Source: Acidobacteriota bacterium (GTDB taxonomy: Bacteria; Actinomycetota; Acidimicrobiia; ATN3). Taken from it: a stretch of 64,000 nt of DNA. Position numbers and translations under genes: made by a program. The notes below the pieces were generated by a model. It did not search any database. It worked only from the letters and a program-made list of their open reading frames with translations, and was not told where the DNA came from. Of this stretch, positions 7,468-63,912 are shown in pieces. Positions within the stretch are counted from its first letter, which is position 1. Each line of letters starts with the position of its first letter. The stretch is from NCBI GenBank assembly GCA_003577105.1, contig QEUQ01000001.1, positions 6,118-70,117 of the forward strand. The letters run 5' to 3'.

Positions 7468-9089
7468 CGTAAGGTGCCGCCTTCAAGCAGGCCCACCTTG
7501 TCGGCACAGAGCTGAATAAGTGCATCGTGACTCATGGACTCAAGATACCCGTCCCACTTGCCCTCATGATCGGCCTCGAGATATCGAAGCGCATTCTTGT
7601 AGTCGATCAGCGACTGATCCCTTTCGCCGAGTGCCTCTAGCAGAGTGGCTCGATAGAAGTACGCAAGAGAAAACTGCGGGTCGCAGTAGACAGCCCGCCC
7701 AAAGGAAGCGAGGGCATCATCATCTGCTCCTAGACGCTGTTGTGCCGAGCCTAGAAGGAAGTGCAACGAGGCTTCTGTCGGAGCCCGCTCGATCGCAGCT
7801 GCGACCAGACTGACGACCTCGTCAACCTGCCCTCGCTCAAGATGACCCTGCGCCGTCGCAACCACCTCCGACAATTCACCGTGCTCGAGCGGAAGATTGC
7901 TTGCCCTCAACGAGGCGACCTCTTCCTCGGCTGACTCGAAATCGTCTCCCGCCGGAGAGCTTGTCTCAAGCGCGCCGGCGCCGATCGCGCCGACCCCGCG
8001 CCCTGAAGCACCCGGACTTGAAGCAATTGCAGGAGTCTCAAGCGGTCTCACTGCCGGAGGCGTGATCGCTTCAATCCCCATCGCCGGAATCTCCGAGCTC
8101 TTAGTAGGTGCTGCGGCGATCGAAGACGTCGGTGCCGCATTGGCGATCGCATAGCTCCGGCTGGAGGCCGCCGGGAGGACTGAATCCGGCACACGTCCCT
8201 CGTACGGCTTCCGATAGACAAAGGAGGTTCCCAGATCTACCAGTTCGAGGCTGTGGGGCTGCCGCCAGAGGCTCTCGGAGTGCCCCAAGAAGAGGTAGCC
8301 CCCGGGGCGCAGGGCAGCCTCGAGTGAGCGGATCGCACGATGAAGCGCATCCTTTGAGAAATAGATGGTCACATTGCAGCAGAAGACGATGTCGCTTATT
8401 CCAGCTGCCGGCGGCTGATCTGCGGACAAATTGTGGGGTGAGAATGTCACAAGCTCAGCAACCTGAGGAATGACGCAATAGGCATCCCTGTCCCGCACAA
8501 ACCACCTTCGCCTGAGCAGATCGGGCACACCTGCGAGATGCCGCTCGTCATATCGCCCACTTCGGGCCCGTTCGAGGATGTCGGTCGAGATATCGGTCGC
8601 CATCACCCTCACCCGCCAACTCGACGCCTCATCACCAAGTGCCTCAAGAACTGAAATGGCGAGCGAGTACGGCTCCTCGCCAGACGAACACCCCGCAGAC
8701 CAGAGTGTCAGCTCCTTTCGCGAAGCGGCATTACGAATCACCTCGGGAAGTACGTTTCTGCGCAGACCTTCGTACTGTGGACGATTTCTGAAGAACTCGG
8801 TTTGATGGATCGCGACCTGGTTCCAGAGTGCCTGAAGTTCACTCGGGTCTGAAGTGGCCAGATCCACATAATCTGCAAACGTCGCGCACCCTACCGCCAG
8901 CGCCCTATCACGCAGGTGAAGCCTGAGGACCTCGCGGCGCTTCTCGTCATAGACCATGCCCGCAGACTCGCTGAGCAGCTTTCGAACACGGGAATACTCG
9001 TCATCGCCAAGGACGGCAAAGGATCCGTCTGCACGCTCCCGCAGGAGCTTGCTCAGCTTGCCTTGCGGAGGTGGTGCTCCCCCGATCAT
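7464..9089 (-). CDS. cheR: CheR protein-glutamate O-methyltransferase with C-terminal TPR repeats (FrzF-like)
   Basis: The CheR N-terminal and SAM-methyltransferase motifs are present (FFRNRPQYEGL, LTLWSAGCSSGEEPYSLAI, FCCNVTIYF). After a low-complexity linker come TPR-like repeats (LHFLLGSAQQRLGADDDALASFGRAVYCDPQFSLAYFYRATLLEALGERDQSLIDYKNALRY). The start is chosen at MIGG (9089), 4 nt after the upstream gene's stop. The ORF is open up to 9158. Confidence 0.8.
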   Translation of the reverse strand: MIGGAPPPQGKLSKLLRERADGSFAVLGDDEYSRVRKLLSESAGMVYDEKRREVLRLHLRDRALAVGCATFADYVDLATSDPSELQALWNQVAIHQTEFFRNRPQYEGLRRNVLPEVIRNAASRKELTLWSAGCSSGEEPYSLAISVLEALGDEASSWRVRVMATDISTDILERARSGRYDERHLAGVPDLLRRRWFVRDRDAYCVIPQVAELVTFSPHNLSADQPPAAGISDIVFCCNVTIYFSKDALHRAIRSLEAALRPGGYLFLGHSESLWRQPHSLELVDLGTSFVYRKPYEGRVPDSVLPAASSRSYAIANAAPTSSIAAAPTKSSEIPAMGIEAITPPAVRPLETPAIASSPGASGRGVGAIGAGALETSSPAGDDFESAEEEVASLRASNLPLEHGELSEVVATAQGHLERGQVDEVVSLVAAAIERAPTEASLHFLLGSAQQRLGADDDALASFGRAVYCDPQFSLAYFYRATLLEALGERDQSLIDYKNALRYLEADHEGKWDGYLESMSHDALIQLCADKVGLLEGGTLR

Positions 9090-32222: not shown

Positions 32223-32636
32223 TCACGGAGAAAGCGCGGCCGCTACGGCGAGGGCAAGTTCACGAGAGTGCGTGAGTGAGATCTCGATGCGCGCAATCCC
32301 GAGAACTTGTGCTCGTCGGGCCGCGCTACCGGTCAGAAGCACACCGGGTTTTCCGTCGCCGGTCACGCAAATCTCCCTCCAGGCAACTTGCCCCAGCCCA
32401 ATTCCCATCGCCTTCATCACAGCCTCTTTCGCGGCAAAACGAACTGCAAAGTGCTTCGCCGTATTGACTCTTGCCTCGCAGTATTGGCGCTCCTCCGGTG
32501 CGAAGACACGCTCGACAAATCGAGGTCTCTTCGCAATCGCGGCGCCAATCCTTTCGATCTCAATTGCATCAATCCCGAGTCCGATCACTGACGAAGGACC
32601 GCTGGAGTCACCGAGGATCGTGTCTGTCTGCGTCAT
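32223..32636 (-). CDS. acpS: Holo-[acyl-carrier-protein] synthase (4'-phosphopantetheinyl transferase)
   Basis: VIGLGIDAIEIERI ... the typical AcpS core of 120-137 aa. The true start may be the internal GTG at about 32588. Confidence 0.85.
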   Translation of the reverse strand: MTQTDTILGDSSGPSSVIGLGIDAIEIERIGAAIAKRPRFVERVFAPEERQYCEARVNTAKHFAVRFAAKEAVMKAMGIGLGQVAWREICVTGDGKPGVLLTGSAARRAQVLGIARIEISLTHSRELALAVAAALSP

Positions 32637-34474
32637 TCGACGGTCACCGTCTTCGCGAGATTCCTCGGCTTATCCACGTCGAGCCCGCGGCTGAGAGCAA
32701 TTTCATACGCGAACAGTTGGCAAGGAACGACATCAATAAGCGGGCTCAGCATCTCGCTCACTTCAGGCACAGTGAATGCGAAATCGGCCTCCTCAATTGC
32801 CGCGTCATCGCCATCATTTGCAATCACGAGCACCGTTGCTCCTCGCGCCTTCATCTCCTGCATGTTCGAGAGCACTTTTGCCTTCACATGCCCCGAGGTA
32901 GCAATGACAACCACGACCACGCCCGGCTCGACGAGCGCTATTGGGCCATGCTTCATCTCACCGGCGGCATACCCCTCGGCGTGGAGGTACGAGATCTCCT
33001 TGAGCTTCAGAGCGCCCTCCATTGCTACGGGATACCCGACCCCTCGCCCCAGAAAGAAGAAGTCTTTCGATCTGCCTACCGACTGCGACGCCCGTTTCGC
33101 CTGCTCGCTCCAGCTCTCGAGGTTGGCATCGACGAGGCCGGGAATTCGACCCAACTCGGTTGCGATCTCGCCAATCTCGTGTGACGAGAGCGACTCCCTC
33201 ACCTGAGCCAGATATAAGGCGAGCAGCTCCATGGCAGCCATCTGAGCCGTAAAGGTCTTAGTCGCTGCGACACCAACCTCGGGTCCGGCACGCGTGTAAA
33301 GCACGGCGTCTGCCTCGCGCGCCATCGACGAATCGACGACGTTGCAGACTGCCACGACCCTCGCTCCAAGGCTCTTTGCATACCTACAGGCAGCCACCGT
33401 ATCTGCGGTCTCGCCCGACTGCGACACGGCTACGACCAGTGCCTTGTCATCGAGAACTGGATCGCGGTATCGAAACTCTGAGGCCAGATCGATCTCGACC
33501 GGAATCCGCGCCCAATGCTCGATGGCGTATTTGGCCACCATTCCCGCATGAAATGACGTTCCGCATGCGACAACGACGATCTTGTTGATGTTTCTGAGAA
33601 AACCCTCGTCGCCGTGGACCTCATCGAGACGGAGCTTTCCATCTTCGAATCGGCCCCGGATCGTGTCTCTGATCGCGCTCGGCTGCTCGTGAATTTCCTT
33701 GAGCATGAAGTCCGGATAGCCGGCCTTCTCCGGCGACTGCAGATCCCAGTTGATCTCCTTGGGCTCGACCGCGACTTTGGCCCCGTCGGATGCGAAGACC
33801 GTGATCTCACCTGGACCAACCTCTGCCACTTGCCCATCGGACATGACCACGACTCGCCGCGTGTGCTCAAGGATTGCAGGAATGTCCGATGCCACAACGG
33901 CCGAGTCGCTCCCTATACCGACTAGCAAGGGCGAATCGCGCCTGACTGCGACAAGGCGGCCGGGATCGTCTCTGTCGATTGTCACCATCGCCACGGACCC
34001 TTCCACCTCCCCGAGCACTTCAAGAGCAGCTTCAGACAGCGACCTACCCTCAGAAAGCCCTTCTTCGAGAAGGTGGGCTAGGAGTTCAGAGTCGGTAGCG
34101 GACTTGAGATCATGGCCTCGCTCTCTTAGTGCAGCAGCGAGTGAGCGGTGGTTTTCGATGATTCCGTTGTGCACGATCGCGATTCGGCCCGTGCAGTCAG
34201 AGTGAGGATGAGCGTTGATACCTGTAGGTGCTCCGTGCGTAGCCCATCTGGTGTGACCAATGCCGAGCGTCGCAGCCCTGGCCGCGATTCCCGAATCATC
34301 GACCCTCGAAGCGAGATCCCCGACCTTGCCTGCGCACTTCTCGATCTCGATCGCACCATCACCGACAACTGCAACGCCGGCCGAGTCATAACCTCGATAT
34401 TCGAGTCGGTGCAGTCCATCAACTAGAACACCAAGGGCAGCCTCGGAGCCGACGTAACCCACAATTCCACACAT
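32633..34474 (-). CDS. glmS: Glutamine--fructose-6-phosphate aminotransferase (isomerising)
   Basis: MCGIVGYVG provides the N-terminal Cys nucleophile. Two SIS domains and the C-terminal ...TVTVE follow. Confidence 0.95.
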   Translation of the reverse strand: MCGIVGYVGSEAALGVLVDGLHRLEYRGYDSAGVAVVGDGAIEIEKCAGKVGDLASRVDDSGIAARAATLGIGHTRWATHGAPTGINAHPHSDCTGRIAIVHNGIIENHRSLAAALRERGHDLKSATDSELLAHLLEEGLSEGRSLSEAALEVLGEVEGSVAMVTIDRDDPGRLVAVRRDSPLLVGIGSDSAVVASDIPAILEHTRRVVVMSDGQVAEVGPGEITVFASDGAKVAVEPKEINWDLQSPEKAGYPDFMLKEIHEQPSAIRDTIRGRFEDGKLRLDEVHGDEGFLRNINKIVVVACGTSFHAGMVAKYAIEHWARIPVEIDLASEFRYRDPVLDDKALVVAVSQSGETADTVAACRYAKSLGARVVAVCNVVDSSMAREADAVLYTRAGPEVGVAATKTFTAQMAAMELLALYLAQVRESLSSHEIGEIATELGRIPGLVDANLESWSEQAKRASQSVGRSKDFFFLGRGVGYPVAMEGALKLKEISYLHAEGYAAGEMKHGPIALVEPGVVVVVIATSGHVKAKVLSNMQEMKARGATVLVIANDGDDAAIEEADFAFTVPEVSEMLSPLIDVVPCQLFAYEIALSRGLDVDKPRNLAKTVTVE

Positions 34475-34546: not shown

Positions 34547-34960
34547 TCGCCGGAATTGTCCACTCCAGCTGTGCCTCTGTCGCCGGCGTTTCCGCCGGGT
34601 TTTCTTCACAACTGTCACGACTGTGGTCGCCGAGGGGTACCCGCCGAGTGTTTCGATAACCGGTGTTGGACTCGCTTCAATTCAAGTCACCCTCTGCTGG
34701 AATATGCAGAGCGCCGATTCAAACCCCTACCTCGTCACCCTTGACGTCCCCCGGGATTCCAGAACCGGGGGCCCCGCCGGCATAGCCGCCGGGGGTCAAG
34801 GGCCAGGCGCTTCGATATTCGATTTTGCATCGCCCGGACCCGATCAGAAATTGAATCAATCGAGTCCAAGACGCCTTCGTGCTGCATTCCGCAACTGATC
34901 AAGTCTAGTGCCGAAATCAGCGGCAGACACTCAAATTGCGCCCGTCCGGTCAAGTCCCAC

Positions 34961-54338: not shown

Positions 54339-54845
54339 TTGAGAGTCACGCTAGAACAAGTCGATCGCAAAGCGCTGAAGGAACTCCTCGTCAAGAACTG
54401 GATGACGCACGACGCCATGTGGTTCATGAACGCAGTCGGAACCATGGGTATCGAGACCGCGAATTCGATGAACCGAAGCTCGGTGCGAATGATGGCCGGG
54501 GTCGAAGCCAAGCGAATTCGAAAGCTCATGGGCGTTGACTCGGTCGGCGACATCTCCACTCTCAGGGACTTCTTCGAAACTGCGCGCGAGCTGGTCATCG
54601 GTGACTTCATCGACTTCACTTGGGAATGGCACGCGAGCTCGTTCGATTTTGAGATCACCAAGTGTTTCGCGTTCGACGGCGTAAGCAAACTCGGTGTTGC
54701 CGGCGAATACGAATGTGGCATCTACGAGCGGATCTATGGTTGGCTCGAAGCGCTCGGAGTCGAATACGAGGTCTCGCCCCAAGTCGACCACTGCACGATG
54801 TTCCACGGCGGCGAGTGCAAGCGTACGTTCAGAGTCAGTTTCTAG
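54339..54845 (+). CDS. Hypothetical cytoplasmic protein (168 aa, Trp/Cys-containing). Function unknown
   Basis: The TTG start is embedded in a TCAATTGA palindrome, and a CTGAAagaTTCAG palindrome lies at 54319-54331. No recognised motif. It is the first of four same-strand genes. Confidence 0.45.
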   Translation: MRVTLEQVDRKALKELLVKNWMTHDAMWFMNAVGTMGIETANSMNRSSVRMMAGVEAKRIRKLMGVDSVGDISTLRDFFETARELVIGDFIDFTWEWHASSFDFEITKCFAFDGVSKLGVAGEYECGIYERIYGWLEALGVEYEVSPQVDHCTMFHGGECKRTFRVSF

Positions 54846-54861
54846 TTCAAGCGCGTTCAAC
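54845..54861 (+). promoter_or_regulatory. PHO-box-like direct repeat GTTCAAG-N3-GTTCAAC upstream of the phosphodiesterase gene
   Basis: GTTCAAgcgcGTTCAAccc: two GTTCAA units spaced 10 nt start to start, 32-48 bp upstream of the start at 54893. They resemble the actinobacterial PHO-box unit GTTCACC. Confidence 0.35.
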
Positions 54862-54892
54862 CCGAATCGCGCATCCACATACAATCTGAGCG

Positions 54893-56479
54893 TTGGGCTG
54901 GCCAATCCCAACCGGCCAAGACGAGGAGACGGGAATGCCAGGAGACAACGACATCACGGTGCAAATAGAGCAGGCCAGGGAGATCCTCTCCTCTGACGAG
55001 CTTGCGCCCATTTGCGAAATGGTCTTCTGGCGAGACGATCTCAACGGGACGCCCGCCTACGTGGTCGCTAATTCGATTGGGACTGTGCGCTACGCAAGGC
55101 ATGAAGAGGACGGCACTCATCGCTTTGAGGTCATCGACGTCGAGGGGGAGAATTTCCTTGAGAAGCAGGACCAAGGTGCGTTCAGCCCAGTCCACGATGA
55201 GCGATCCAGCCTTTTTCCAACCGCATCGGAGAACCACTACCCACATGCCTACGAATCGATCGCACAGATTTTCGACGATCCGAACGCACCCGACATGGCA
55301 GCCGTCCACACCGCCGCACACAACTGGGAAGATGAGGGCGGGCACCGAGGAGAGCACGGGTCACTTGACGTAATTCAGGCTCGGGCACCATTTATCGCAG
55401 CGGGAAAGGGAATCGCAGCCCTTGGCGAGGTCAACAGAGGCATCCGCTTGATTGACATCGCCCCCACAATCCTCCATGCGCTCGGAGCGAAGGCGACTGA
55501 CGGTGGTAGGTCGGCAACGGGAGAGGTGGCCGGACCTACGCTCCTGAAGCGCCAAGACGGCGTGGCCGCCACCGACATCGTCGACGAGGGCGACAGACCA
55601 GAGCGGGCAGTCACATTCCTCCTCGACGGATGCAACAACAACGTGCTTCACGACATGGCTGCGCGAGGTGAGATTCCCAACATCGCGCGCCTCATGGAGA
55701 TGGGCACCACCTTCTCTCATGGGGCAGCATCGAGCTTTCCTACGGTGACACTTGCTAACCACACCGCTATCGCTACGGGTACGCATCCGGGGCATCACAA
55801 CGTGCTGCATAACTCCTTCTGGGACAGAAGCGAAAAAAAGCGGATCGACACCAACCACCCGGCAACATGGCACCTCTGGAGCCAGTGGGTATCCAGTGAA
55901 GTTGAGACGATCCACGACGCCATCCACCGATCCTTCCCGGGCGAGTTCACGGCTTCGATCGATGAACCGGCCGACGGTGGGGCTGACTACTCGACCTTCG
56001 GGATGTTCAGGAAGGGCAGGGGCACCGGTTTCCCCGAGAGCCCGCACGAACTCCCCCACGCCAGCGCGCAGTTCGTAAGGCCCTTCAAGGACTACGAATG
56101 GTCGACGGCCGTCGATCACATGGGGCTCGAGCAGGCCACGGGGATTTGGAGTGGCCATTTCAAGGGCGATGACTATCCGCTTCCGAAGTTCATGTGGGTC
56201 AACTTCACCCTGACGGACTCGGCAATGCATCGAGGAGGGCCGCACTCAGACATATCAGAGGCGAGCCTTCGAGATACCGACGGAAGGATCGGGGAAATCA
56301 TCGCCTCGATTGAAAAGGCGGGGGCCTTTGAAGAAACCGCGTTCTTCCTGTTTGCAGATCACGGCATGGAGGAGTCAAATCCAGAAGTCACGGGGAACTG
56401 GGGAAAGATCCTGCGCGACGAGGGCATTAGCTTTCGTGATGAGGGCTACGGCTTCATATACGTAGGCGTCGAGGACTAG
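54893..56479 (+). CDS. Alkaline-phosphatase-superfamily type I phosphodiesterase / nucleotide pyrophosphatase
   Basis: Core: FLLDGCNNNVLHDMAARGEIPNI...SFPTVTLANHTAIATGTHPGHHNV (metal-ligand Thr nucleophile context) ... FFLFADHGME. A ~190-aa N-terminal extension is present. Confidence 0.75.
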   Translation: MGWPIPTGQDEETGMPGDNDITVQIEQAREILSSDELAPICEMVFWRDDLNGTPAYVVANSIGTVRYARHEEDGTHRFEVIDVEGENFLEKQDQGAFSPVHDERSSLFPTASENHYPHAYESIAQIFDDPNAPDMAAVHTAAHNWEDEGGHRGEHGSLDVIQARAPFIAAGKGIAALGEVNRGIRLIDIAPTILHALGAKATDGGRSATGEVAGPTLLKRQDGVAATDIVDEGDRPERAVTFLLDGCNNNVLHDMAARGEIPNIARLMEMGTTFSHGAASSFPTVTLANHTAIATGTHPGHHNVLHNSFWDRSEKKRIDTNHPATWHLWSQWVSSEVETIHDAIHRSFPGEFTASIDEPADGGADYSTFGMFRKGRGTGFPESPHELPHASAQFVRPFKDYEWSTAVDHMGLEQATGIWSGHFKGDDYPLPKFMWVNFTLTDSAMHRGGPHSDISEASLRDTDGRIGEIIASIEKAGAFEETAFFLFADHGMEESNPEVTGNWGKILRDEGISFRDEGYGFIYVGVED

Positions 56480-56527
56480 GCTCCCGAACTTACTTCGAAA
56501 TCGGCCAATGCTAAGACCGAGGACCTG

Positions 56528-57019
56528 ATGCTCAATATTGGAAAGCTTGACCACGTCGCGGTTGCCGTACCTCGCATTCGCGACGTACTGCCGCTATATC
56601 AAGACTTGCTTGGCGGCCAATACATCTACGGTGGCGATCATCTCGATCAGGGTTACCGGTGGATCCAGTTTCTCTACCCGGGACCCTTCAAGATCGAACT
56701 GATGGAGCCTCTTTCCGATGATGGCTTCTTGCAGAGGTTCTTGGATACTCGCGGGCCGGGGATGCATCACGTGCTGTTTTACGTCGATGACATGGAGGCG
56801 TCGATTGCCGAGGCCGAAGCAGCCGGATATGACGTGGTGAACGCGCATCTTGATCCGACAGGGTGGAGCGAGGCGTTCTTGCATCCAAAGTCGACAAGCG
56901 GCGTCCTGATTGAGCTCGGAAAGATCCCTGAAGGTAGCAAGGAACCCGAGGTGCCCGGTGAATTTGCGCACTCACTCGAGGAGCTCCTCGACGGGGTGAT
57001 GGGCGGCAGGCGTAATTGA
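56528..57019 (+). CDS. VOC-family (glyoxalase / methylmalonyl-CoA epimerase-like) protein
   Basis: LDHVAVAVPRIRDVLPLYQDLLGG...GMHHVLFYVDDMEASIAEAEAAGY has paired beta-alpha-beta-beta-beta modules with metal ligands at H, E, H and E. Confidence 0.7.
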   Translation: MLNIGKLDHVAVAVPRIRDVLPLYQDLLGGQYIYGGDHLDQGYRWIQFLYPGPFKIELMEPLSDDGFLQRFLDTRGPGMHHVLFYVDDMEASIAEAEAAGYDVVNAHLDPTGWSEAFLHPKSTSGVLIELGKIPEGSKEPEVPGEFAHSLEELLDGVMGGRRN

Positions 57020-59289
57020 AGCACCTGGATCGGACACTTTCGTTCGAAGAGAGGGCTGCCGCGCTACTCGGCGAGATGACCATCGATGAAAAGGCGGCAC
57101 AGCTGACATCTGTTTGGCTCAGCTTCGATCCTGACAGCGGCGACTTCGCTCCCAACACAATGGCCGGCCCCTTCGCTCAGGGGACTGACCCGGAAGCGAT
57201 CATGGCCCACGGCATCGGCCAGATAACCCGCCCGCTCGGCTCCAAGCCGATCGATCCGGCCCAAGGCGTCGAAATGATCAACGACCTCCAGCGCCGCCTT
57301 GTGGAGGGAACGCGCCTCGGTATCCCTGCCATTTGTCACGAGGAATGCCTCAGCGGCTTGATGGCTCAGGGCGCGACATCGTTTCCCTCACCGCTGAACT
57401 TCGCGTCTACGTGGGATCCTGAACTTGTCGAGAGGGCCAGCCGTGCCATTGGGCGCCAGATGCGCTCCGTTGGAGTTCACCAGGGCCTCGCCCCCGTTGC
57501 AGACGTGGCCCGCGACCCCCGATGGGGGCGGATTGAAGAGACGCTCGGAGAAGATCCCTATCTTGTCGGATCGATGGTCACCGCATATGTCAGGGGCTTG
57601 CAGGGAGACTCGCTTGAGAGCGGTGTAATAGCGACACTCAAACACTTCTGTGGCTATTCGTTTAGCGAGGGCGGTCGAAATTTCGCTCCAGCACACGTTG
57701 GACGGCGGGAACTTGCCGACGTATTCCTGCTCCCGTTTGAGATGGCAGTGCGTGATGGCGGTGCATATTCGGTAATGAATGCCTACCAAGAGATCGATGG
57801 CGAAGCACCAGCAGCCTCACGCTGGCTTCTCACCGAGGTACTAAGGGATGCATGGGGCTTCGAGGGATTTGTCGTAGCCGACTACGGAGCAGTCTCATTC
57901 CTTCACCTGATGCACAGGGTCGCCCGCGACGGCACCGAGGCCGCGGCAATGGCAATCCGGGCGGGTCTCGACCTCGAGCTACCCAGCCCAGCTGAGTACC
58001 CAACGGGGATTCCTGATGCGCTGGGCCGGGGCTTGCTGAGCATGGATGACGTTGACCGGTCGGTAACGCGGGTGTTGATCGCCAAGCTGAAGCTCGGGCT
58101 TTTTGAAAACCCGTACGTCGATGCGGAGCGGATCGATTTGGACAGCGCGACTGATCAAGAACTCGCTTCGGAAATTGCCACAAAATCGGTAACGCTACTG
58201 ACCAATGATGGCCTCCTCCCCCTTGATGCAAGCGGCAACTCGCTAGGCAAAATCGCTGTCATCGGGCCCAATGCTGACGATGTCATGGCGCTCTTCGGTA
58301 ACTACTCCTACGAGAACCATGTGGTCTCCACTCACTTCCCCGAAGCAGCAAGTGAGATTGATGCGCCAACCGTAAGGAATGCACTTGCCACCCTCGCAGG
58401 TGAGGAGCGCATCGTCTATGCAAAGGGCTGCGATGTCATGGGCACGGATACCTCGAACATCGAAGAAGCCGTAGCGGCGGCCTCGGACGCCGAAGTGGCA
58501 ATAGTCGTCGTCGGCGACAAAGCCGGGCACTTCAAGCTCGGCACAGTAGGCGAAGGAACCGACCGCGCCGACATCGATCTGCCCGGGGTTCAGGGTGAGC
58601 TTGTAAGGCGGGTGATCGAGACCCGCACTCCAACTGTTGTGGTTCTCCTAAATGGCAGGCCATTTGCCCTCGGCGGGATCGCTCGAGATGCGGCAGCCAT
58701 CATTGAGGCATGGTTTCCGGGCCAAGGCGGCGGATTGGCCATTGCGGAGGCGATCTTCGGGGTCGCCTCGCCCGCCGGGCGCACGCCGGTGACTTTCGCC
58801 CCAAAGGCAGGCGTCGAGCCCATGTACTACAACCATAAGTACCTAGCTCCAGGCTTCCCTCGCCAAGATGACTTCCGGCCGGTGTTCCCCTTCGGTCACG
58901 GGCTTTCTTACACGACCTTTGAGTACTCGAACCTGACGATCTCATCGCCCGAGGCCGACGCCGGAGAGACAGTTGGCATCAGCTGCACTGTCACGAATAC
59001 AGGAGGGCGAGCGAGCGACGAGGTCGTACAGCTCTATGTGAAAGATGAATACGCCAGCGTGACTCGCCCGGTAATCGAACTCAAGGGTTTCACGCGAATC
59101 CACCTGGCCCCAGGCGAGTCGGCCGAGGTGAACTTTTCACTCGGCCCTCGGCAATTGCGCTTCACCGGAATCGACGGTCGGCGCATCGTCGAGCCTGGAG
59201 ATTTCAAGGTGATGGTCGGTGCCTCCTCCGCTGATATCAGGCTCGACGGCGGCTTCAGACTCACCGGGGATGTGATCGAGGTCCCTTAG
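57016..59289 (+). CDS. bglX: Glycoside hydrolase family 3 beta-glucosidase (BglX-like)
   Basis: GH3 N-terminal domain with the catalytic Asp context (GFEGFVVADYGAV), an alpha/beta sandwich and a C-terminal Fn3-like domain. The gene overlaps the VOC gene by 4 nt. Confidence 0.9.
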   Translation: MKHLDRTLSFEERAAALLGEMTIDEKAAQLTSVWLSFDPDSGDFAPNTMAGPFAQGTDPEAIMAHGIGQITRPLGSKPIDPAQGVEMINDLQRRLVEGTRLGIPAICHEECLSGLMAQGATSFPSPLNFASTWDPELVERASRAIGRQMRSVGVHQGLAPVADVARDPRWGRIEETLGEDPYLVGSMVTAYVRGLQGDSLESGVIATLKHFCGYSFSEGGRNFAPAHVGRRELADVFLLPFEMAVRDGGAYSVMNAYQEIDGEAPAASRWLLTEVLRDAWGFEGFVVADYGAVSFLHLMHRVARDGTEAAAMAIRAGLDLELPSPAEYPTGIPDALGRGLLSMDDVDRSVTRVLIAKLKLGLFENPYVDAERIDLDSATDQELASEIATKSVTLLTNDGLLPLDASGNSLGKIAVIGPNADDVMALFGNYSYENHVVSTHFPEAASEIDAPTVRNALATLAGEERIVYAKGCDVMGTDTSNIEEAVAAASDAEVAIVVVGDKAGHFKLGTVGEGTDRADIDLPGVQGELVRRVIETRTPTVVVLLNGRPFALGGIARDAAAIIEAWFPGQGGGLAIAEAIFGVASPAGRTPVTFAPKAGVEPMYYNHKYLAPGFPRQDDFRPVFPFGHGLSYTTFEYSNLTISSPEADAGETVGISCTVTNTGGRASDEVVQLYVKDEYASVTRPVIELKGFTRIHLAPGESAEVNFSLGPRQLRFTGIDGRRIVEPGDFKVMVGASSADIRLDGGFRLTGDVIEVP

Positions 59290-59292
59290 GTC

Positions 59293-59640
59293 CTAGAAGA
59301 CGAGCACCTTGCCGGCCCATTCGGTCCAATCTGTCAACTCATCGAGAGTTGACCGCCGGGCAGGGCTGATAAGCATCTCGTCACTTATTCCCCTGGCATC
59401 CATGCACGTTCCGCAACAGGCAATCTCGCCCTTTCGGCTGGCAGCGCGAAGCATCCGGCCGAGGTTGTAGTAGCCATCGGGAGTTTGCTGGTTGTCGAGC
59501 GCGCAGCTGACGGCGTCGCCAAGCAAGAAGATTCGGATTTCTGCGGAGTCCCGTTTGGCCAAGTTGATGGCTAGGCGAATTCCGTTGTAGCTCCGCTCGC
59601 TCCCGTATCCGGCATCGTTGAGTATGAACAAGTACTTCAC
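59293..59640 (-). CDS. DsrE/DsrF/TusD-like sulfur-relay family protein
   Basis: (M)KYLFILNDAGYGSERSYNGIRLAINLAK...IACCGTCMDARGI carries the conserved Cys...RG of the DsrE fold. The GTG start is preceded by GAAAGGGG. Confidence 0.7.
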   Translation of the reverse strand: MKYLFILNDAGYGSERSYNGIRLAINLAKRDSAEIRIFLLGDAVSCALDNQQTPDGYYNLGRMLRAASRKGEIACCGTCMDARGISDEMLISPARRSTLDELTDWTEWAGKVLVF

Positions 59641-59697
59641 TACGGCCCCTTTCGCCCGTTGACTTAGGTAGATCTGCAAGTTGATGTTATTATTCTA

Positions 59698-59713
59698 ACA
59701 TTCTTAGGAATGT
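59698..59713. promoter_or_regulatory. AT-rich 6-4-6 palindrome ACATTC-TTAG-GAATGT in the divergent dsrE-like / arsR promoter region. Candidate ArsR-family operator
   Basis: The only AT-rich stretch in this part of the window. It lies 24 bp upstream of the ArsR-rhodanese start and 58 bp upstream of the DsrE-like start. Confidence 0.4.
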
Positions 59714-59736
59714 ACGACTAATGCCGGACAGAGTGA

Positions 59737-60429
59737 TTGGGGCTCGCGAAGTTGAATCCGCGTCAAGCCAAAGACGATCTCTACGAACAATTCGCCAGGA
59801 TCGGCAAGGTCATTTCGCACCCCAAACGTTTGGAGATTCTCGACTTGCTGCGCCAAAGCGAGCGAAGCGTCGACGAGATCGCAGGGCTCACAGGCGTCAC
59901 AGTCACATCGGCGTCAGCTCAACTCCAAGTGCTGCGCCAAGGTCGTCTGGTCCAGGCGCGGCGCAGTGGGCGGCAGGTGATCTATTCCCTCGCAGACGAG
60001 GCTGTCGCCAGACTCGTCGAGGCGCTCCAGGAAACTGCTCGAAATCGGCTGGCCGAAGTCGGCGAACTCCTGCGGGATGCATTCGACTCAGACGCCCTCG
60101 CGCCGATCAGACAGCAAGACCTTGCCGCTCGCCTCGAGGACCCCAACGTGATCGTCATAGATGTTCGCCCGGCAAAGGAGTACTTGGCCGGTCACATCGC
60201 CGGCGCGATTTCGATGCCGATTGACGACCTTGTCACTCGCCTCCATGAGCTGCCGCGTGGCGCAGAGATCGTCGCATACTGCCGAGGTCCCTATTGCGTC
60301 CTTGCCCCGCAGGCCGTCGAAGCGATCAGAAATGCCGGTCACGACAGCGTGAGGCGGCTCGAGACCGGTCTGCCGCAGTGGCGAGCCGCAGGCTTGCCGA
60401 TTGATACAACCGTTCCGAACTCAGCATGA
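59737..60429 (+). CDS. ArsR/SmtB-family transcriptional regulator fused to a C-terminal rhodanese domain
   Basis: Winged HTH (ISHPKRLEILDLLRQSERSVDEIAGLTGVTVTSASAQLQVLRQGRLVQARRSGRQVIYSL) plus rhodanese (VIVIDVRPAKEYLAGHIAGAISMP...IVAYCRGPYC with an active-site Cys). Confidence 0.8.
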   Translation: MGLAKLNPRQAKDDLYEQFARIGKVISHPKRLEILDLLRQSERSVDEIAGLTGVTVTSASAQLQVLRQGRLVQARRSGRQVIYSLADEAVARLVEALQETARNRLAEVGELLRDAFDSDALAPIRQQDLAARLEDPNVIVIDVRPAKEYLAGHIAGAISMPIDDLVTRLHELPRGAEIVAYCRGPYCVLAPQAVEAIRNAGHDSVRRLETGLPQWRAAGLPIDTTVPNSA

Positions 60430-61085
60430 CAACGCTCGTCTCAGACGCTGCTCGGTACGACTCGTGGTTCGATACGAGCTGGGGCAGGTACGCGGCAGAA
60501 GTCGAATACTCACTGGTTCTCCGGGCCCTCAAGCCAGAACCGCTTGAGCGGATTCTCGACGCGGGGTGCGGGACTGGTCGATTCTCCGAGCGCCTCGGCG
60601 AATATGGCGCAACCGTAATCGGCGTCGACCACGATCCGAACATGCTCGAGCTAGCCAAGGCAAGAAGCCGAGGCGTTGCGTTGGCCGATGCCCACCGTCT
60701 TCCATTTGAGAGCGGGGTGTTCGACGCGACGCTCGCCGTGACGCTATGCGAGTTCTCCGGCGATCCCGGCGGAGTTGTCGACGAGCTTGCACGGGTAACG
60801 CGCCCTGGTGGCCGAGTTGTCATCGGGTTGTTGAATCGAAACAGTCCCTGGGGGTGGCTCAGGCGAAAACGGCTGAAGCGCCCACCGTGGAGCGACGCCG
60901 TCTTCGTTGATGCTCAAACGCTTCGCTCTAAAGTTGGCACCTACGGAACCACATCTCTCACCTCGGGTCTCTTCTCCCCGGGCACGGCACTGCCGTGGTC
61001 ACTCACCCGGCTGATTGAGTCAGCTGGCAGACGATTAGTCCCGAAGCGGGGTGCCTTCCAGGTGATCGCGATGGTGCGTCAATGA
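60426..61085 (+). CDS. Class I SAM-dependent methyltransferase
   Basis: Motif I is ILDAGCGTGRFS, followed by post-I D and the Methyltransf_11 pattern. It overlaps the upstream gene by 4 nt. Confidence 0.8.
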   Translation: MTTLVSDAARYDSWFDTSWGRYAAEVEYSLVLRALKPEPLERILDAGCGTGRFSERLGEYGATVIGVDHDPNMLELAKARSRGVALADAHRLPFESGVFDATLAVTLCEFSGDPGGVVDELARVTRPGGRVVIGLLNRNSPWGWLRRKRLKRPPWSDAVFVDAQTLRSKVGTYGTTSLTSGLFSPGTALPWSLTRLIESAGRRLVPKRGAFQVIAMVRQ

Positions 61086-61618
61086 ATCGCTCGACCTTCA
61101 TGGCGATGAAACGCATTGCAGCCATCACCGCGCATCCCGACGACGAATCGTTTGGACTAGGAGGGGTTATTAGCGCGCTTGTTGAAGGTGGCACCGAAGT
61201 AACTCTCACCTGCCTCACCCATGGCGAAGCTACGACGCTGGGAAGCGCCGAAGATATCGGCCGTCTGCGCTGCCGAGAACTCGAGCAAGCCGCCGCCGCC
61301 CTTGACGCTGCAACTCGACGCGATCTCACGGTTTTTGCATGGTGCCTGAACTCCGATGTGGCGCGACGCCTCAATTCCGAGCTGAATACCTCATTTCAAG
61401 GTATTCCGAGCGAGGCGACGGAGCTGGAGCTTACGGTTGACAGAAACAAGCAGATTGAGGCGATGAACTGTCATGCAAGCCAGCTTCAGGCGAACCCGGT
61501 CCCCTTTCGGCGCCTTGAACTCCAGGGTAGCCGTGAGTACCTCCGCTTACTTCGCGCATCCCACAACGGGACCGATCCATCTCATCTAAGACCGAGCTAT
61601 CGACTGGAGCATCAATGA
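61082..61618 (+). CDS. PIG-L / LmbE-family deacetylase (short form)
   Basis: ITAHPDDESFGLGG is the signature AHPDDE metal-binding motif. It overlaps the upstream gene by 4 nt. Confidence 0.7.
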   Translation: MNRSTFMAMKRIAAITAHPDDESFGLGGVISALVEGGTEVTLTCLTHGEATTLGSAEDIGRLRCRELEQAAAALDAATRRDLTVFAWCLNSDVARRLNSELNTSFQGIPSEATELELTVDRNKQIEAMNCHASQLQANPVPFRRLELQGSREYLRLLRASHNGTDPSHLRPSYRLEHQ

Positions 61619-62769
61619 CAGGTAAGACCATTGCAGTCCTGGGCGGAGGTATCGGCGGGTTCCTCGCGGCCCGCCGGCTGCGCAAGGAGCTTCCATCCCG
61701 TGATCGTGTGTTGCTGATCGAGCGAGATAGAGAGCACGCGTTTCAGCCGTCGCTCCCCTTTGTCTTGAGCGGCAGACGAGATCCTGCAGCGATTGAACGG
61801 CCGGTAGCCGGCATCGCGAAGCTAGGAGTCGATGTCGTTCAGGCGGATGTCACAGCGATAGATATCAGCAGCCAAACTGTGCTCGCCGGTGGCGAGAAGC
61901 ACGACTACGACTATCTGGTCATCGCGCTCGGAGCACAACTGGACCCCGAAGCCATGCCGGGATTTGAGGAGTCAGCCATCAATGTCTTCACACCCGACGG
62001 CGCAGCGATCGCACGTGACGAGCTGCGCACATTGAAAGGTGGCCGGGTCGCGGTTGTCGTCTCACGCCTGCCCTACAAGTGCCCGGCAGCACCGTACGAG
62101 TTCGCATTCATTGCCGACGCGCTACTTCGCAAGACTGACGCGAGGTCTCGGACAAGCGTCGATGTGTATACCCCCGAACCGCTGCCGATGCCGACAACAG
62201 GACCGGCGATCGGTCACGCAGTCGCGTCCATGCTCGCGGCTCGCAAAATCGGCTTCCACCCGAATACACAACTCCAACGAATTGATCCGGCAAACAGGCG
62301 CCTGAAGTTCGAAGACGGATCAGACGCCGAATACGACCTCATACTCGGAATTCCGCCACACCGCGCCCCTGACGCGGTCAGCTCCTGCGATCTCGCTGGA
62401 CCGACAGGCTTCGTGCCGGTGGACAAGGCAACACTTGAGACGACGGCAGATGGCGTCTACGCGATAGGTGATGTCGCGTCTATCGGCCTTGCTGACGGCA
62501 AGTTCCTGCCCAAGGCCGGCGTATTCGCACACTCGCAAGCTGATGTTGTCGCGTCGCGCATCGCAGACGAGCTCGCGGGCCGGTCGCCGTCCAGGGTCTT
62601 TGACGGGAGTGGCTCGTGCTTCCTTGAACTCGGAAACGGCAAAGCCGGATACGCGAAGGGCAACTTCTACGGTGAATCTGGACCCGAAGTGAGAATGCGA
62701 CGCGAGGGATACCACTGGCACATCGGCAAAGTTGCATTCGAGGAGTACTGGCTCAGGTTCCGCTGGTAG
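61615..62769 (+). CDS. sqr: Sulfide:quinone oxidoreductase-like FAD-dependent pyridine-nucleotide-disulfide oxidoreductase
   Basis: FAD-binding motif TIAVLGGGIGGFLAA. Cys sit in PYKCPAAPYEF and GSGSCFLELG, with a GDVAS FAD motif. This Cys pattern is SQR-like. Confidence 0.7.
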   Translation: MTGKTIAVLGGGIGGFLAARRLRKELPSRDRVLLIERDREHAFQPSLPFVLSGRRDPAAIERPVAGIAKLGVDVVQADVTAIDISSQTVLAGGEKHDYDYLVIALGAQLDPEAMPGFEESAINVFTPDGAAIARDELRTLKGGRVAVVVSRLPYKCPAAPYEFAFIADALLRKTDARSRTSVDVYTPEPLPMPTTGPAIGHAVASMLAARKIGFHPNTQLQRIDPANRRLKFEDGSDAEYDLILGIPPHRAPDAVSSCDLAGPTGFVPVDKATLETTADGVYAIGDVASIGLADGKFLPKAGVFAHSQADVVASRIADELAGRSPSRVFDGSGSCFLELGNGKAGYAKGNFYGESGPEVRMRREGYHWHIGKVAFEEYWLRFRW

Positions 62770-62773
62770 TCGA

Positions 62774-63538
62774 TCAGTACTTCACGGCCACGAGATAGAG
62801 ACCCTGGGGGGGTGCGGGTGCACATCCGAGAACATCGACCTCTTCCGGCGCTAAGACATCGCACTTGCCCCGAGCTACAGCTACGCAACGTCCGACGATG
62901 CGTCTGACCATTTGGTGACAGAAGGCGTTCGCCTCGATCTCGAAGCAGATCTCGTCGCCAACCAATGGGCTGTCTGGAGCGAACCATTGAGCCTCGATCA
63001 CATCTCTGACGGTCGACTCACCCGGAGCCGGGCTCTTGCAGAAGGCTCGGAAGTCATGCGTTCCAACAAGAAGCTCAGCAGCGCGATTGAGATCCTCGGT
63101 CTTGATTGGCCCCGTCCACCAAGTGTTGTGGCGCATCGTTGGGTCGGGAATCTCTGACGCTCCAATGCGATACCGATAACGGCGCGAGATAGCGGAATGC
63201 CTTGCGTGGAAACCGACGTGCGCATCTTTCACCGACGCGACCGCAATGTCGGGCGGAAGCATCTTGATCAAGGACTTGTGCAGCTTCTCGCATGCTCGAT
63301 CAGATTCGGTGTGCACTGAGACAACCTGACTGAGCGCGTGCACTCCGGCGTCGGTGCGACCCGCTACCGCCGTCTCGAACGCAGCGCCGAGTACTTGACC
63401 CAAGACGGACTCAAGCTCCTCCTGGACAGTCCGCCGGCCCGGCTGTTTCGCATAACCCGAGAACTCCGAACCGTCATATGCAAGATCGATTCGGATCGCC
63501 CGGCGACCATCGCCGACCGGCTCCTCGAACTTGGTCAG
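62774..63538 (-). CDS. truA: tRNA pseudouridine(38-40) synthase TruA. The start is probably a CTG overlapping the rplQ stop
   Basis: The catalytic RTDAGVHA motif is present. The frame upstream of the annotated TTG (63403) continues as (L)TKFEEPVGDGRRAIRIDLAYDGSFESGYAKQPGRRTVQEELESV, the TruA N-terminus. The only start-like codon there is CTG, forming a CTGA overlap with the rplQ stop. Confidence 0.8.
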   Translation of the reverse strand: MTKFEEPVGDGRRAIRIDLAYDGSEFSGYAKQPGRRTVQEELESVLGQVLGAAFETAVAGRTDAGVHALSQVVSVHTESDRACEKLHKSLIKMLPPDIAVASVKDAHVGFHARHSAISRRYRYRIGASEIPDPTMRHNTWWTGPIKTEDLNRAAELLVGTHDFRAFCKSPAPGESTVRDVIEAQWFAPDSPLVGDEICFEIEANAFCHQMVRRIVGRCVAVARGKCDVLAPEEVDVLGCAPAPPQGLYLVAVKY

Positions 63539-63912
63539 ACAAGCTCCAGATATGCCATGGGAGCCCCGTCACCCTTGCGAGGGCCGATCTTGACTACGCG
63601 GGTATATCCGCCATCTCGGTCCTCGTAACGGGTCGCGACATTGGAAAAGAGCCAGTGGACAACATCGCGGTCTTCGATCTGCTTGAGAACCTGGCGCCTG
63701 TCGTGAACCGTTCCGCTCTTGGCCTTGGTGATCATCCGTTCAGCGATAGCTCTCGCGGCCTTGGCTCTCGCTTCTGTCGTCTTGACACGGCCGGGCTTGC
63801 CACCTGCATGTCGCGCGTCGTCAACAAAGAGCGAACGCGCGATGTTTGCAAGCATCGCCTTCTCGTGAGCCGGGGAACTCGCAAGGCGAGGTCCCTTGCG
63901 TGGAGCTGGCAC
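63535..63912 (-). CDS. rplQ: 50S ribosomal protein L17
   Basis: (M)PAPRKGPRLASSPAHEKAMLANIARSLF...ARAKAARAIAERMITKAK. It starts with GTG. Confidence 0.95.
   Translation of the reverse strand: MPAPRKGPRLASSPAHEKAMLANIARSLFVDDARHAGGKPGRVKTTEARAKAARAIAERMITKAKSGTVHDRRQVLKQIEDRDVVHWLFSNVATRYEDRDGGYTRVVKIGPRKGDGAPMAYLELV

Follow-up and report, generated by a model that had tools for sequence, protein, structure and literature searches.

Gene content of the locus

The 64,000-nucleotide stretch of contig QEUQ01000001.1 analysed here (the window, to which all coordinates refer unless a locus is named) contains, at 59293-62769, five genes and a shared control region. We read them as a probable sulfide/persulfide detoxification module under a rhodanese-fused repressor of the ArsR family. 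The genes for the regulator, a methyltransferase, a PIG-L/LmbE-family remnant and a flavoprotein of the sulfide:quinone oxidoreductase (SQR) fold follow each other on the plus strand. A gene for a small DsrE-family sulfur carrier is transcribed divergently (Table 1).

Table 1. Genes and control elements at 59293-62769 of the window, with the profile matches or other features that support them.
Feature	Coordinates	Strand	Support
YchN-type DsrE-family small sulfur carrier, 115 aa, GTG start	59293-59640	minus	Pfam DsrE 72 bits
Control region shared by the divergent DsrE-like gene and regulator operon	59641-59751	none	GC dip, conserved block
Candidate operator ATTCTA-AC-ATTC-TTAG-GAAT-GT	59692-59713	none	Matrix score 29.4 bits, conserved arms
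ArsR/SmtB winged helix-turn-helix with C-terminal rhodanese, 225 aa; alternative TTG start at 59737	59752-60429	plus	HTH_5 35.5 bits, Rhodanese 66.3 bits
Class I S-adenosylmethionine-dependent methyltransferase, 219 aa	60426-61085	plus	Methyltransf_11 79.7 bits
PIG-L/LmbE-family remnant, 178 aa	61082-61618	plus	PIG-L 53.6 bits, profile positions 2-69 of 129 only
SQR-fold flavoprotein, 384 aa, type II/III-like SQR candidate	61615-62769	plus	Pyr_redox_2; NCBIfam type III SQR 229.8 bits

A first-pass annotation, made from the letters of this DNA, had assigned domains to the five proteins, and Pfam and NCBIfam profile searches upheld all five calls. The motifs it listed (CRGPYC in the regulator, KCPAAPYE and GSGSCF in the flavoprotein) were found, as was an ATGA overlap at each of the three plus-strand gene junctions. 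It had also described a shared spacer of 96 bp, of which the intergenic position holds and the length does not. From sequence, TTG 59752 is most likely the start codon of the regulator. It gives a protein of 225 aa, the same length as the public database copy, and the ATG of a relative (locus L007) is aligned with it. Because the start is placed there, the spacer measures 111 bp.

The ArsR-rhodanese regulator

The winged helix-turn-helix (wHTH) of the regulator passes the curated thresholds of the ArsR/SmtB family, both for the NCBIfam subfamily NF033788 (75.2 bits, cut-off 55) and for Pfam HTH_5 (cut-off 22). The C-terminal half combines the fold of rhodanese sulfurtransferases with their catalytic cysteine, in an invariant IVAYC-RGPYC. 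In a 36-sequence alignment of regulators, AYCRGPYC does not vary. With these matches and the invariant loop, the proposed fusion of an ArsR wHTH with a rhodanese that retains its catalytic cysteine is confirmed.

The window regulator has only two cysteines, C177 and C182, both in the loop CRGPYC. C177 takes the catalytic position at the start of the six-residue active-site loop, and C182 lies five residues on. As for the ligand sets of metal(loid) sensors, there is no cysteine in residues 1-170 and no histidine cluster in helix alpha-5, and neither residue occurs among the invariant wHTH columns of the 36-sequence alignment. RefSeq calls the family “metalloregulator ArsR/SmtB family transcription factor” (plasmid records L094-L098), a label that is probably misleading, since the wHTH carries no metal-ligand residues. 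The cysteine pair that defines the wHTH of BigR/SqrR-type sensors is absent as well, which places the regulator outside that class; it scores 54.2 bits against the BigR equivalog, with a cut-off of 155.

In the predicted structure (predicted local distance difference test, pLDDT, 81), the wHTH spans residues 1-80 and the rhodanese domain residues 117-215, with a long helix of 30 residues (83-112) between them. The predicted TM-score (pTM) is 0.48, and the orientation of the domains is uncertain.

The family is widespread, not rare. Among the candidates scored, at least 7,770 proteins match at E <= 1e-10. At least 593 family matches were found in species-level genomes of Chloroflexota, Actinomycetota, Acidobacteriota, Pseudomonadota, Gemmatimonadota, Ignavibacteria and others. 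The fusion is also present on 198 plasmids, including 45 from Lactiplantibacillus and 32 from Leuconostoc. No characterised ArsR-rhodanese fusion was found in the open-access literature, where a report in a subscription journal could be missed.

Control region and candidate operator

The GC content is 0.44-0.46 at 59600-59750 and about 0.6 in the flanks, which confirms the AT-rich dip noted earlier for the shared intergenic region. In this dip, ACATTC-TTAG-GAATGT (59698-59713) is the sole match in the 64 kb, even with two mismatches allowed; at that tolerance, a chance test in the window gave 1.5 expected matches for the one found. Palindromes of any 6-4-6 type are expected about 16 times per 64 kb and about 0.02 times in the spacer between the regulator and DsrE-like genes. 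By itself, such a palindrome is weak evidence of an operator, and its significance comes from the conservation of its sequence.

Four close lineages, namely the window and loci L001, L004 and L007 (regulators 68-76% identical), share a nearly invariant block of about 30 nt, TATTATTCTAACATTC-N4-GAATGT, while the rest of the spacer region diverges. The 4-nt centre differs from lineage to lineage (TTAG, GCAA, TTGC and GTTT), and the arms are kept.

The same half-sites were then sought among 80 distant regulator loci from many phyla (716 kb). The search pattern, ATTC-N4-GAAT, was derived solely from the window lineage. It gave 16 matches, of which 11 are no more than 200 nt from either end of a regulator gene, a zone that covers about 5% of this sequence (binomial P 1.4e-11). 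The distant sites have a longer oriented pattern in common, ATTC(A/T)A-NN-ATTC-N4-GAAT-(A/G)N. A matrix built from them yielded a cross-phylum family consensus, ATTCAA-N8-TTGAAT, often with an inner ATTC-N4-GAAT, and its usual position is 35-60 nt upstream of the regulator start codon.

At 18 bits or more, a site occurs within 250 nt of the regulator in 36 of the 68 loci left out of matrix building, compared with three site clusters in the other 673 kb. In the window, the next best same-strand site in the 64 kb reaches 9.9 bits, compared with 29.4 for the one at 59692-59713. A candidate operator at this position, matching the family-wide motif, is supported by these sequence comparisons. Of the operator proposed in the first-pass annotation, the palindrome remains and the extent changes: the full element is longer, has three ATTC/GAAT half-sites and contains the 6-4-6 unit as its inner dyad. 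These are the half-sites of the SqrR-type operator ATTC-N8-GAAT, here arranged as ATTC-N4-ATTC-N4-GAAT.

In several Betaproteobacteria the motif lies downstream of the regulator gene, before a TauE gene or a persulfide-dioxygenase (PDO)-like gene (L023 5821, L028 4286, L034 6724, L043 1611, L047 6767 and L054 6205). These copies, ATTCAA-GC/AT-ATTC-N4-GAAT-AT, are the best ones of the operator and have the same orientation as the upstream sites elsewhere.

The SQR-fold flavoprotein and the YchN-type carrier

The best NCBIfam match of the flavoprotein is type III SQR (E 5.2e-68, 229.8 bits). In sequence comparison with solved proteins, human SQOR comes first (3e-28), ahead of Aquifex SQR, flavocytochrome c sulfide dehydrogenases and Acidithiobacillus SQR, with NDH-2 and CoA-disulfide reductases ranking below (E 1e-9 or weaker). 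The predicted structure is confident (pLDDT 93, pTM 0.91) and superposes best on SQRs, with TM-scores of 0.86-0.88 for these, 0.78-0.81 for flavocytochrome c sulfide dehydrogenases and 0.76-0.78 for NDH-2.

C156 (in KCPAAPYE) and C335 (in GSGSCF) align with the catalytic cysteines of human SQOR (KCAGAPQ and TSC), and both are invariant in two alignments, of 19 and of 36 homologues. The N-terminal FAD motif GGGIGG is at residues 10-15. No second GxGxxG, the NAD(P)H motif, was found in the sequence. The protein has the two-dinucleotide fold and the redox cysteine pair of SQRs, without an NAD(P)H motif. With its cysteine pair, its lack of that motif and the order of its structural matches, the protein bears out the earlier call of an SQR-type flavoprotein, and on the same grounds NDH-2 was rejected. 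The length of the family is almost constant, at 377-397 aa and mostly 383-386 aa. In the model, the C-terminus is a single amphipathic, aromatic-rich helix (366-383) with W368, H369 and W379 invariant.

As for the divergent gene, the closest solved structure of its product is E. coli YchN (1jx7), which matches over the full length (E 1.5e-19). The genes of the relatives are also called at 115 aa. In 32 homologues Cys79 is invariant, within C-G-x-C-x-x-A-R. The first-pass annotation had spoken of a DsrE/TusD-like sulfur carrier. A divergent gene of the DsrE family is indeed present, of the YchN type and not TusD, as the protein does not reach the TusD/DsrE equivalog (18.6 bits, cut-off 89).

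The carrier gene and the SQR gene form the tightest unit. In three loci centred on SQR, which were chosen regardless of any regulator, a DsrE gene (110-116 aa) is found 12-28 nt upstream of the SQR gene every time. One further observation concerns L093, where transposase genes of the rve and DDE_Tnp_IS240 families flank the pair (2766-3485 and 8547-8906), a hint that the two genes are mobilised together.

Neighbourhoods of the regulator in other genomes

In L001 and L004, whose regulators are 76% and 75% identical to that of the window, all five genes are in place, between a GH3 glycosidase gene and truA-rplQ-rpoA. In L007 (regulator 68% identical), the DsrE-like gene is divergent from the regulator gene, and the SQR gene follows the latter with nothing between. 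The arrangement of a divergent DsrE-like gene, the regulator and a downstream SQR gene is kept in all four lineages.

Among the 80 distant loci, a YchN-like DsrE gene is present within 3 kb of the regulator in 22, an SQR homologue in 12 and both in 11. Their gene orders vary and include the divergent one of the window. A gene for a PDO-like protein of the metallo-beta-lactamase (MBL) fold occurs in 23 loci, an MFS transporter, usually after the PDO-like gene, in 33, and TauE/SafE in 6. Counted from the lists, with many contigs short, about 45 of the 80 loci have at least one of SQR, DsrE, PDO-like or TauE. Comparison over 96 related loci gives a core of YchN-type carrier, 384-aa flavoprotein with both redox cysteines and ArsR-rhodanese regulator. 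The conserved unit is the YchN-like DsrE protein with SQR, joined by the regulator in a subset of loci.

The MBL-fold neighbour had been considered as a tandem regulator, an idea rejected after Pfam and PDB searches, which identify it as PDO-like, sometimes with a rhodanese domain of its own. Its best solved relatives are 3r2u, 3tp9, 4ysb, BpPRF and ETHE1. It opens a second type of operon under the same regulator family, in which the PDO-like protein is followed by an MFS transporter and sometimes by a related class I methyltransferase (L054 6262-8331, L056 6666-9987, L070 2279-5367, and also L018, L028, L030, L077 and L087).

The methyltransferase and PIG-L genes

No NCBIfam model is matched at its cut-off by the window methyltransferase (ArsM, 30.5 bits with a cut-off of 263), and its best solved relative is TT1324, an uncharacterised Thermus protein. 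The gene is missing from L007 and so does not belong to the core. It is a recurrent accessory gene, with a class I methyltransferase within 3.5 kb of the regulator in 11 of the 80 distant loci. Enzymes 43% and 34% identical to that of the window occur in operons of regulator, PDO-like protein and MFS transporter, in a Thermomicrobiaceae member (L070) and in Sulfuriferula (L054).

Recent work on Actinomycetota, Acidobacteriota and Chloroflexota describes cytoplasmic UbiG/UbiE-type enzymes of about 210 aa (MddM1, MddH) that are H2S-inducible and use H2S and methanethiol as methyl acceptors (PMC12904073). The window enzyme is of the same broad class. It may S-methylate H2S, methanethiol or another thiol.

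The PIG-L protein was correctly called short, and the cause is a clean in-frame internal gap of 59 aa. In L001 and L004 the protein has 226 and 235 aa, and all 120 homologues among the matches listed have about 214-389 aa. The gap removes FPDG...GHxDH, a segment that holds a zinc ligand and corresponds in the alignment to the HPDH motif of TT1542, a homologue of solved structure. AHPDDE and the C-terminal HASQ region are kept. Neither the reading frame nor the ATGA overlap with the SQR gene is disturbed by the deletion. Zinc deacetylases of this family have AHPDD(E) together with a downstream HxDH, and the window protein has only the first.

No PIG-L gene was found in the 80 distant loci or in L007. 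The protein does not reach BshB1 (43 bits, cut-off 182) or MshB (23 bits, cut-off 224), and PIG-L genes elsewhere show no consistent partner in their neighbourhoods (thioredoxin and DUF302 in one locus, AidB and MatE in another). The first of these, L089 380-1843, has a full-length homologue (53% identical) after the thioredoxin and DUF302 genes, a possible thiol-related context. Judging from the sequence, the gene is probably a lineage-specific passenger of the closest relatives and inactive here; its open frame may have been retained through translational coupling to the SQR gene. The handling of an acetylated or mycothiol-type thiol, suggested in the first pass, finds no support, because PIG-L is restricted, truncated, below these cut-offs and next to unrelated genes elsewhere.

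Genomic surroundings

The module fills, together with genes for a GH3 glycosidase, a glyoxalase-fold protein and a phosphodiesterase-family protein, a gap that is bounded by truA-rplQ-rpoA (window 54339-63912). The other side of the same gap is rplM, as seen in the contigs of the relatives (L001, L004 and L007), which makes this a ribosomal-protein gene neighbourhood. The SQR and truA genes are convergent, and 4 nt separate their stop codons.

Farther away in the window, a glmS ribozyme (Rfam RF00234, 62.9 bits with a gathering score of 37) was found on the minus strand at 34557-34822. It is directly upstream of an open reading frame of 613 aa on the same strand (32633-34474), presumably glmS.

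Interpretation of the module

Taken together, the set of genes, their conserved cysteines, the SQR fold, the conserved operator and the neighbourhoods shared across phyla make it probable that the locus is a sulfide/persulfide detoxification module, controlled by a repressor of an uncharacterised ArsR subfamily. The first-pass annotation had proposed such a module with an ArsR-rhodanese regulator, and comparative evidence from domains, synteny, operator and cysteines supports it. From these observations we infer the steps of the scheme that follows, namely binding to DNA, the nature of the signal, the reactions of the cysteines and the activities of the enzymes.

By our own reading of the control region, TATTAT on the plus strand (59689-59694) and TAGAAT (complement of 59692-59697) are possible -10 elements, both of which the candidate operator would overlap. 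When no signal is present, a dimer of the regulator would occupy 59692-59713. Because it would cover the likely -10 elements of both divergent promoters, the bound dimer would silence the YchN-like gene as well as the operon of regulator, methyltransferase, PIG-L remnant and SQR.

With a rise in sulfide, residual SQR would oxidise it to sulfane sulfur on Cys156/Cys335. The sulfane sulfur would be handed to low-molecular-weight acceptors, to Cys79 of the YchN-like carrier, or to both. C177, the catalytic rhodanese cysteine of the regulator, would become persulfidated, and C182 would close a di-, tri- or polysulfide bridge with it. The long alpha-5 helix would relay the change to the wHTH, DNA affinity would fall and the genes would be derepressed.

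A more specific, rather unlikely version is a relay in which SQR loads the YchN-like carrier, the carrier persulfidates the regulator and an intraloop Cys-Sn-Cys releases the DNA. The cell would then read its sulfide-oxidation flux and not free persulfide, and would do so in thousands of bacteria, including those with Rv0324.

Several observations weigh against a sulfide/persulfide module under this repressor. In the control region, a scan for the sigma-70 consensus found no promoter, and the half-sites are spaced by N4 and N12, where SqrR has N8, which leaves the geometry and register of binding ambiguous. The 229.8 bits of the flavoprotein are below the cut-off of 525 of the sole matching NCBIfam SQR model, which describes a selenoprotein subtype. 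Classical SQRs carry two C-terminal membrane-anchoring helices, and the flavoprotein has one; its coupling to quinone is likely and that to the membrane putative. The DsrE-SQR pair is present without the ArsR-rhodanese regulator in the three loci centred on SQR.

In terms of neighbours, MMPL/RND (6 loci) and fatty-acid-hydroxylase-family genes (8 loci) adjoin some members of the regulator family, with no obvious link to sulfur. On a Lactiplantibacillus plantarum plasmid (L097, NZ_CP151094.1, 3483-7618), a 37%-identical ArsR-rhodanese gene heads an operon that continues with a thioredoxin-family protein, TrxB, DsbA, TrxA and a flavoprotein. This operon fits a general thiol-redox sensor as well as a persulfide sensor.

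The plasmid operon and the neighbours unrelated to sulfur favour a first alternative, in which the regulator senses thiol oxidation in general (disulfide or peroxide stress) through a CxxxxC disulfide, and the role of the module is redox homeostasis and not sulfide detoxification in particular. Such a bridge could arise between cysteines spaced five residues apart, with no need for sulfane sulfur. We consider this explanation unlikely, since the sensing cysteine is at the catalytic position of a fold specialised for sulfane-sulfur transfer, and SQR, DsrE, PDO-like or TauE genes accompany the regulator in more than half of the distant loci, as counted above.

A second alternative, which we hold to be quite improbable, takes the flavoprotein and the YchN-like protein as a pair that mobilises sulfur for biosynthesis or another acceptor, with the fused rhodanese mainly catalytic, so that the regulator would be a bifunctional protein and not a sensor. 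The single C-terminal helix of the 384-aa family, the adjacency of DsrE and SQR in all three independent loci without the regulator, and NifS-like cysteine desulfurase genes in 4 loci are in its favour. On the other hand, the fold and both redox cysteines match SQRs above any other class, and the C-terminal helix is amphipathic and aromatic-rich, with its two tryptophans and one histidine invariant. There is also no other sensing site in the wHTH, and an unregulated DNA-binding protein would be odd.

Lastly, an arsenic or metal(loid) resistance unit, with an ArsR metalloregulator, an ArsM-like methyltransferase and a rhodanese/Cdc25-like arsenate reductase, is suggested by the RefSeq family name, the methyltransferase gene directly after the regulator gene and the rhodanese folds of Acr2-type arsenate reductases, but it is highly improbable, as the wHTH has no Cys/His metal-site residues, no arsenic transporter is near the module, and the ArsM and arsenate reductase identities were rejected, the former on its score and the latter because the loop CRGPYCV lacks the Arg that would make the CX5R loop of phosphatases and arsenate reductases.

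Comparison with known systems

A sulfide/persulfide module under an ArsR-type repressor has its nearest counterparts in the persulfide-sensing repressors SqrR of Rhodobacter capsulatus, BigR of Xylella and Agrobacterium and YgaV of E. coli, with which the window regulator has the ArsR wHTH repressor scaffold in common. As in these systems, the regulator family is linked in genomes with SQR, persulfide dioxygenase and sulfite-exporter genes. The sensor of SqrR and BigR is a pair of cysteines within their wHTH dimer. The window regulator, unlike them, has no wHTH cysteine, scores below the BigR cut-off and carries a C-terminal rhodanese with a CxxxxC loop. The ATTC/GAAT half-sites of the operator are those of SqrR, whose “sqr box” is ATTC-N8-GAAT (bioRxiv 10.64898/2026.05.15.721447). 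The spacing differs, with N4 and N12 in the window, or ATTCAA-N8-TTGAAT in the family.

In the case of E. coli ygaVP, the ArsR-type YgaV and the membrane rhodanese YgaP, a regulator and a rhodanese are likewise encoded together. The solved proteins of this system are detectably related to the two halves of the window regulator (3cuo, E 2.8e-9; 5hbl, E 1.1e-3), which by analogy resembles a fusion of YgaV and YgaP. It differs in being one polypeptide, with no apparent transmembrane segment and with a second cysteine in the rhodanese loop.

Among solved structures, the closest to the wHTH is the fragment 2kko/3gw2 (E 2.3e-20, 93 residues aligned at about 50% identity). Its annotation is that of a possible ArsR-family regulator, and we take it to be M. 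bovis Mb0332, the orthologue of Rv0324. Only residues 1-100 are in the structure. Near Rv0324 in M. tuberculosis are, as we assume, Rv0323c (PIG-L family), Rv0329c (perhaps a methyltransferase) and Rv0331 (SQR-like). Rv0324 is an ArsR-family regulator of bedaquiline tolerance whose signal is undescribed (PMC9480834). In the open-access literature no paper was found that links it to rhodanese. Through the presumed Mb0332 orthology, the present analysis suggests a testable candidate signal for it.

S. aureus CstR is a persulfide-responsive repressor of SQR, of a persulfide dioxygenase-rhodanese fusion and of a sulfur-transferase (the cst operon). The regulatory logic is the same, and the PDO-like neighbours of the family match S. 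aureus 3r2u best. CstR belongs to the CsoR family and not to ArsR, and has no enzyme-like sensor domain.

As for the enzymes, the flavoprotein resembles human SQOR (type II) and type III SQR in fold, N-terminal FAD motif and both redox cysteines. Unlike the solved SQRs, it is about 25-45 residues shorter, ends in one helix, and has a YchN-like partner gene in every locus examined; its activity is a predicted one. The carrier has the size of E. coli YchN and the same C-x-x-C-x-x-x-R-G region. We know of no function for YchN itself, and the link to SQR is an observation on gene neighbourhoods in the present loci.

To our knowledge, the persulfide-sensing repressors described to date (SqrR/BigR, CstR and others) rely on cysteine pairs that belong to the DNA-binding scaffold itself. 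Debate continues on how such sensors acquire their specificity for sulfane sulfur as opposed to other oxidants. A rhodanese active site borrowed as a sensor would, if true, be a different solution to this specificity. To the family the analysis adds a candidate operator and a candidate regulon of SQR, YchN-like carrier, persulfide dioxygenase, TauE, MFS transporter and methyltransferase. An ArsR-family repressor that controls SQR is established logic; the ArsR-rhodanese variant, with the rhodanese cysteine pair as its candidate sensor, would be new.

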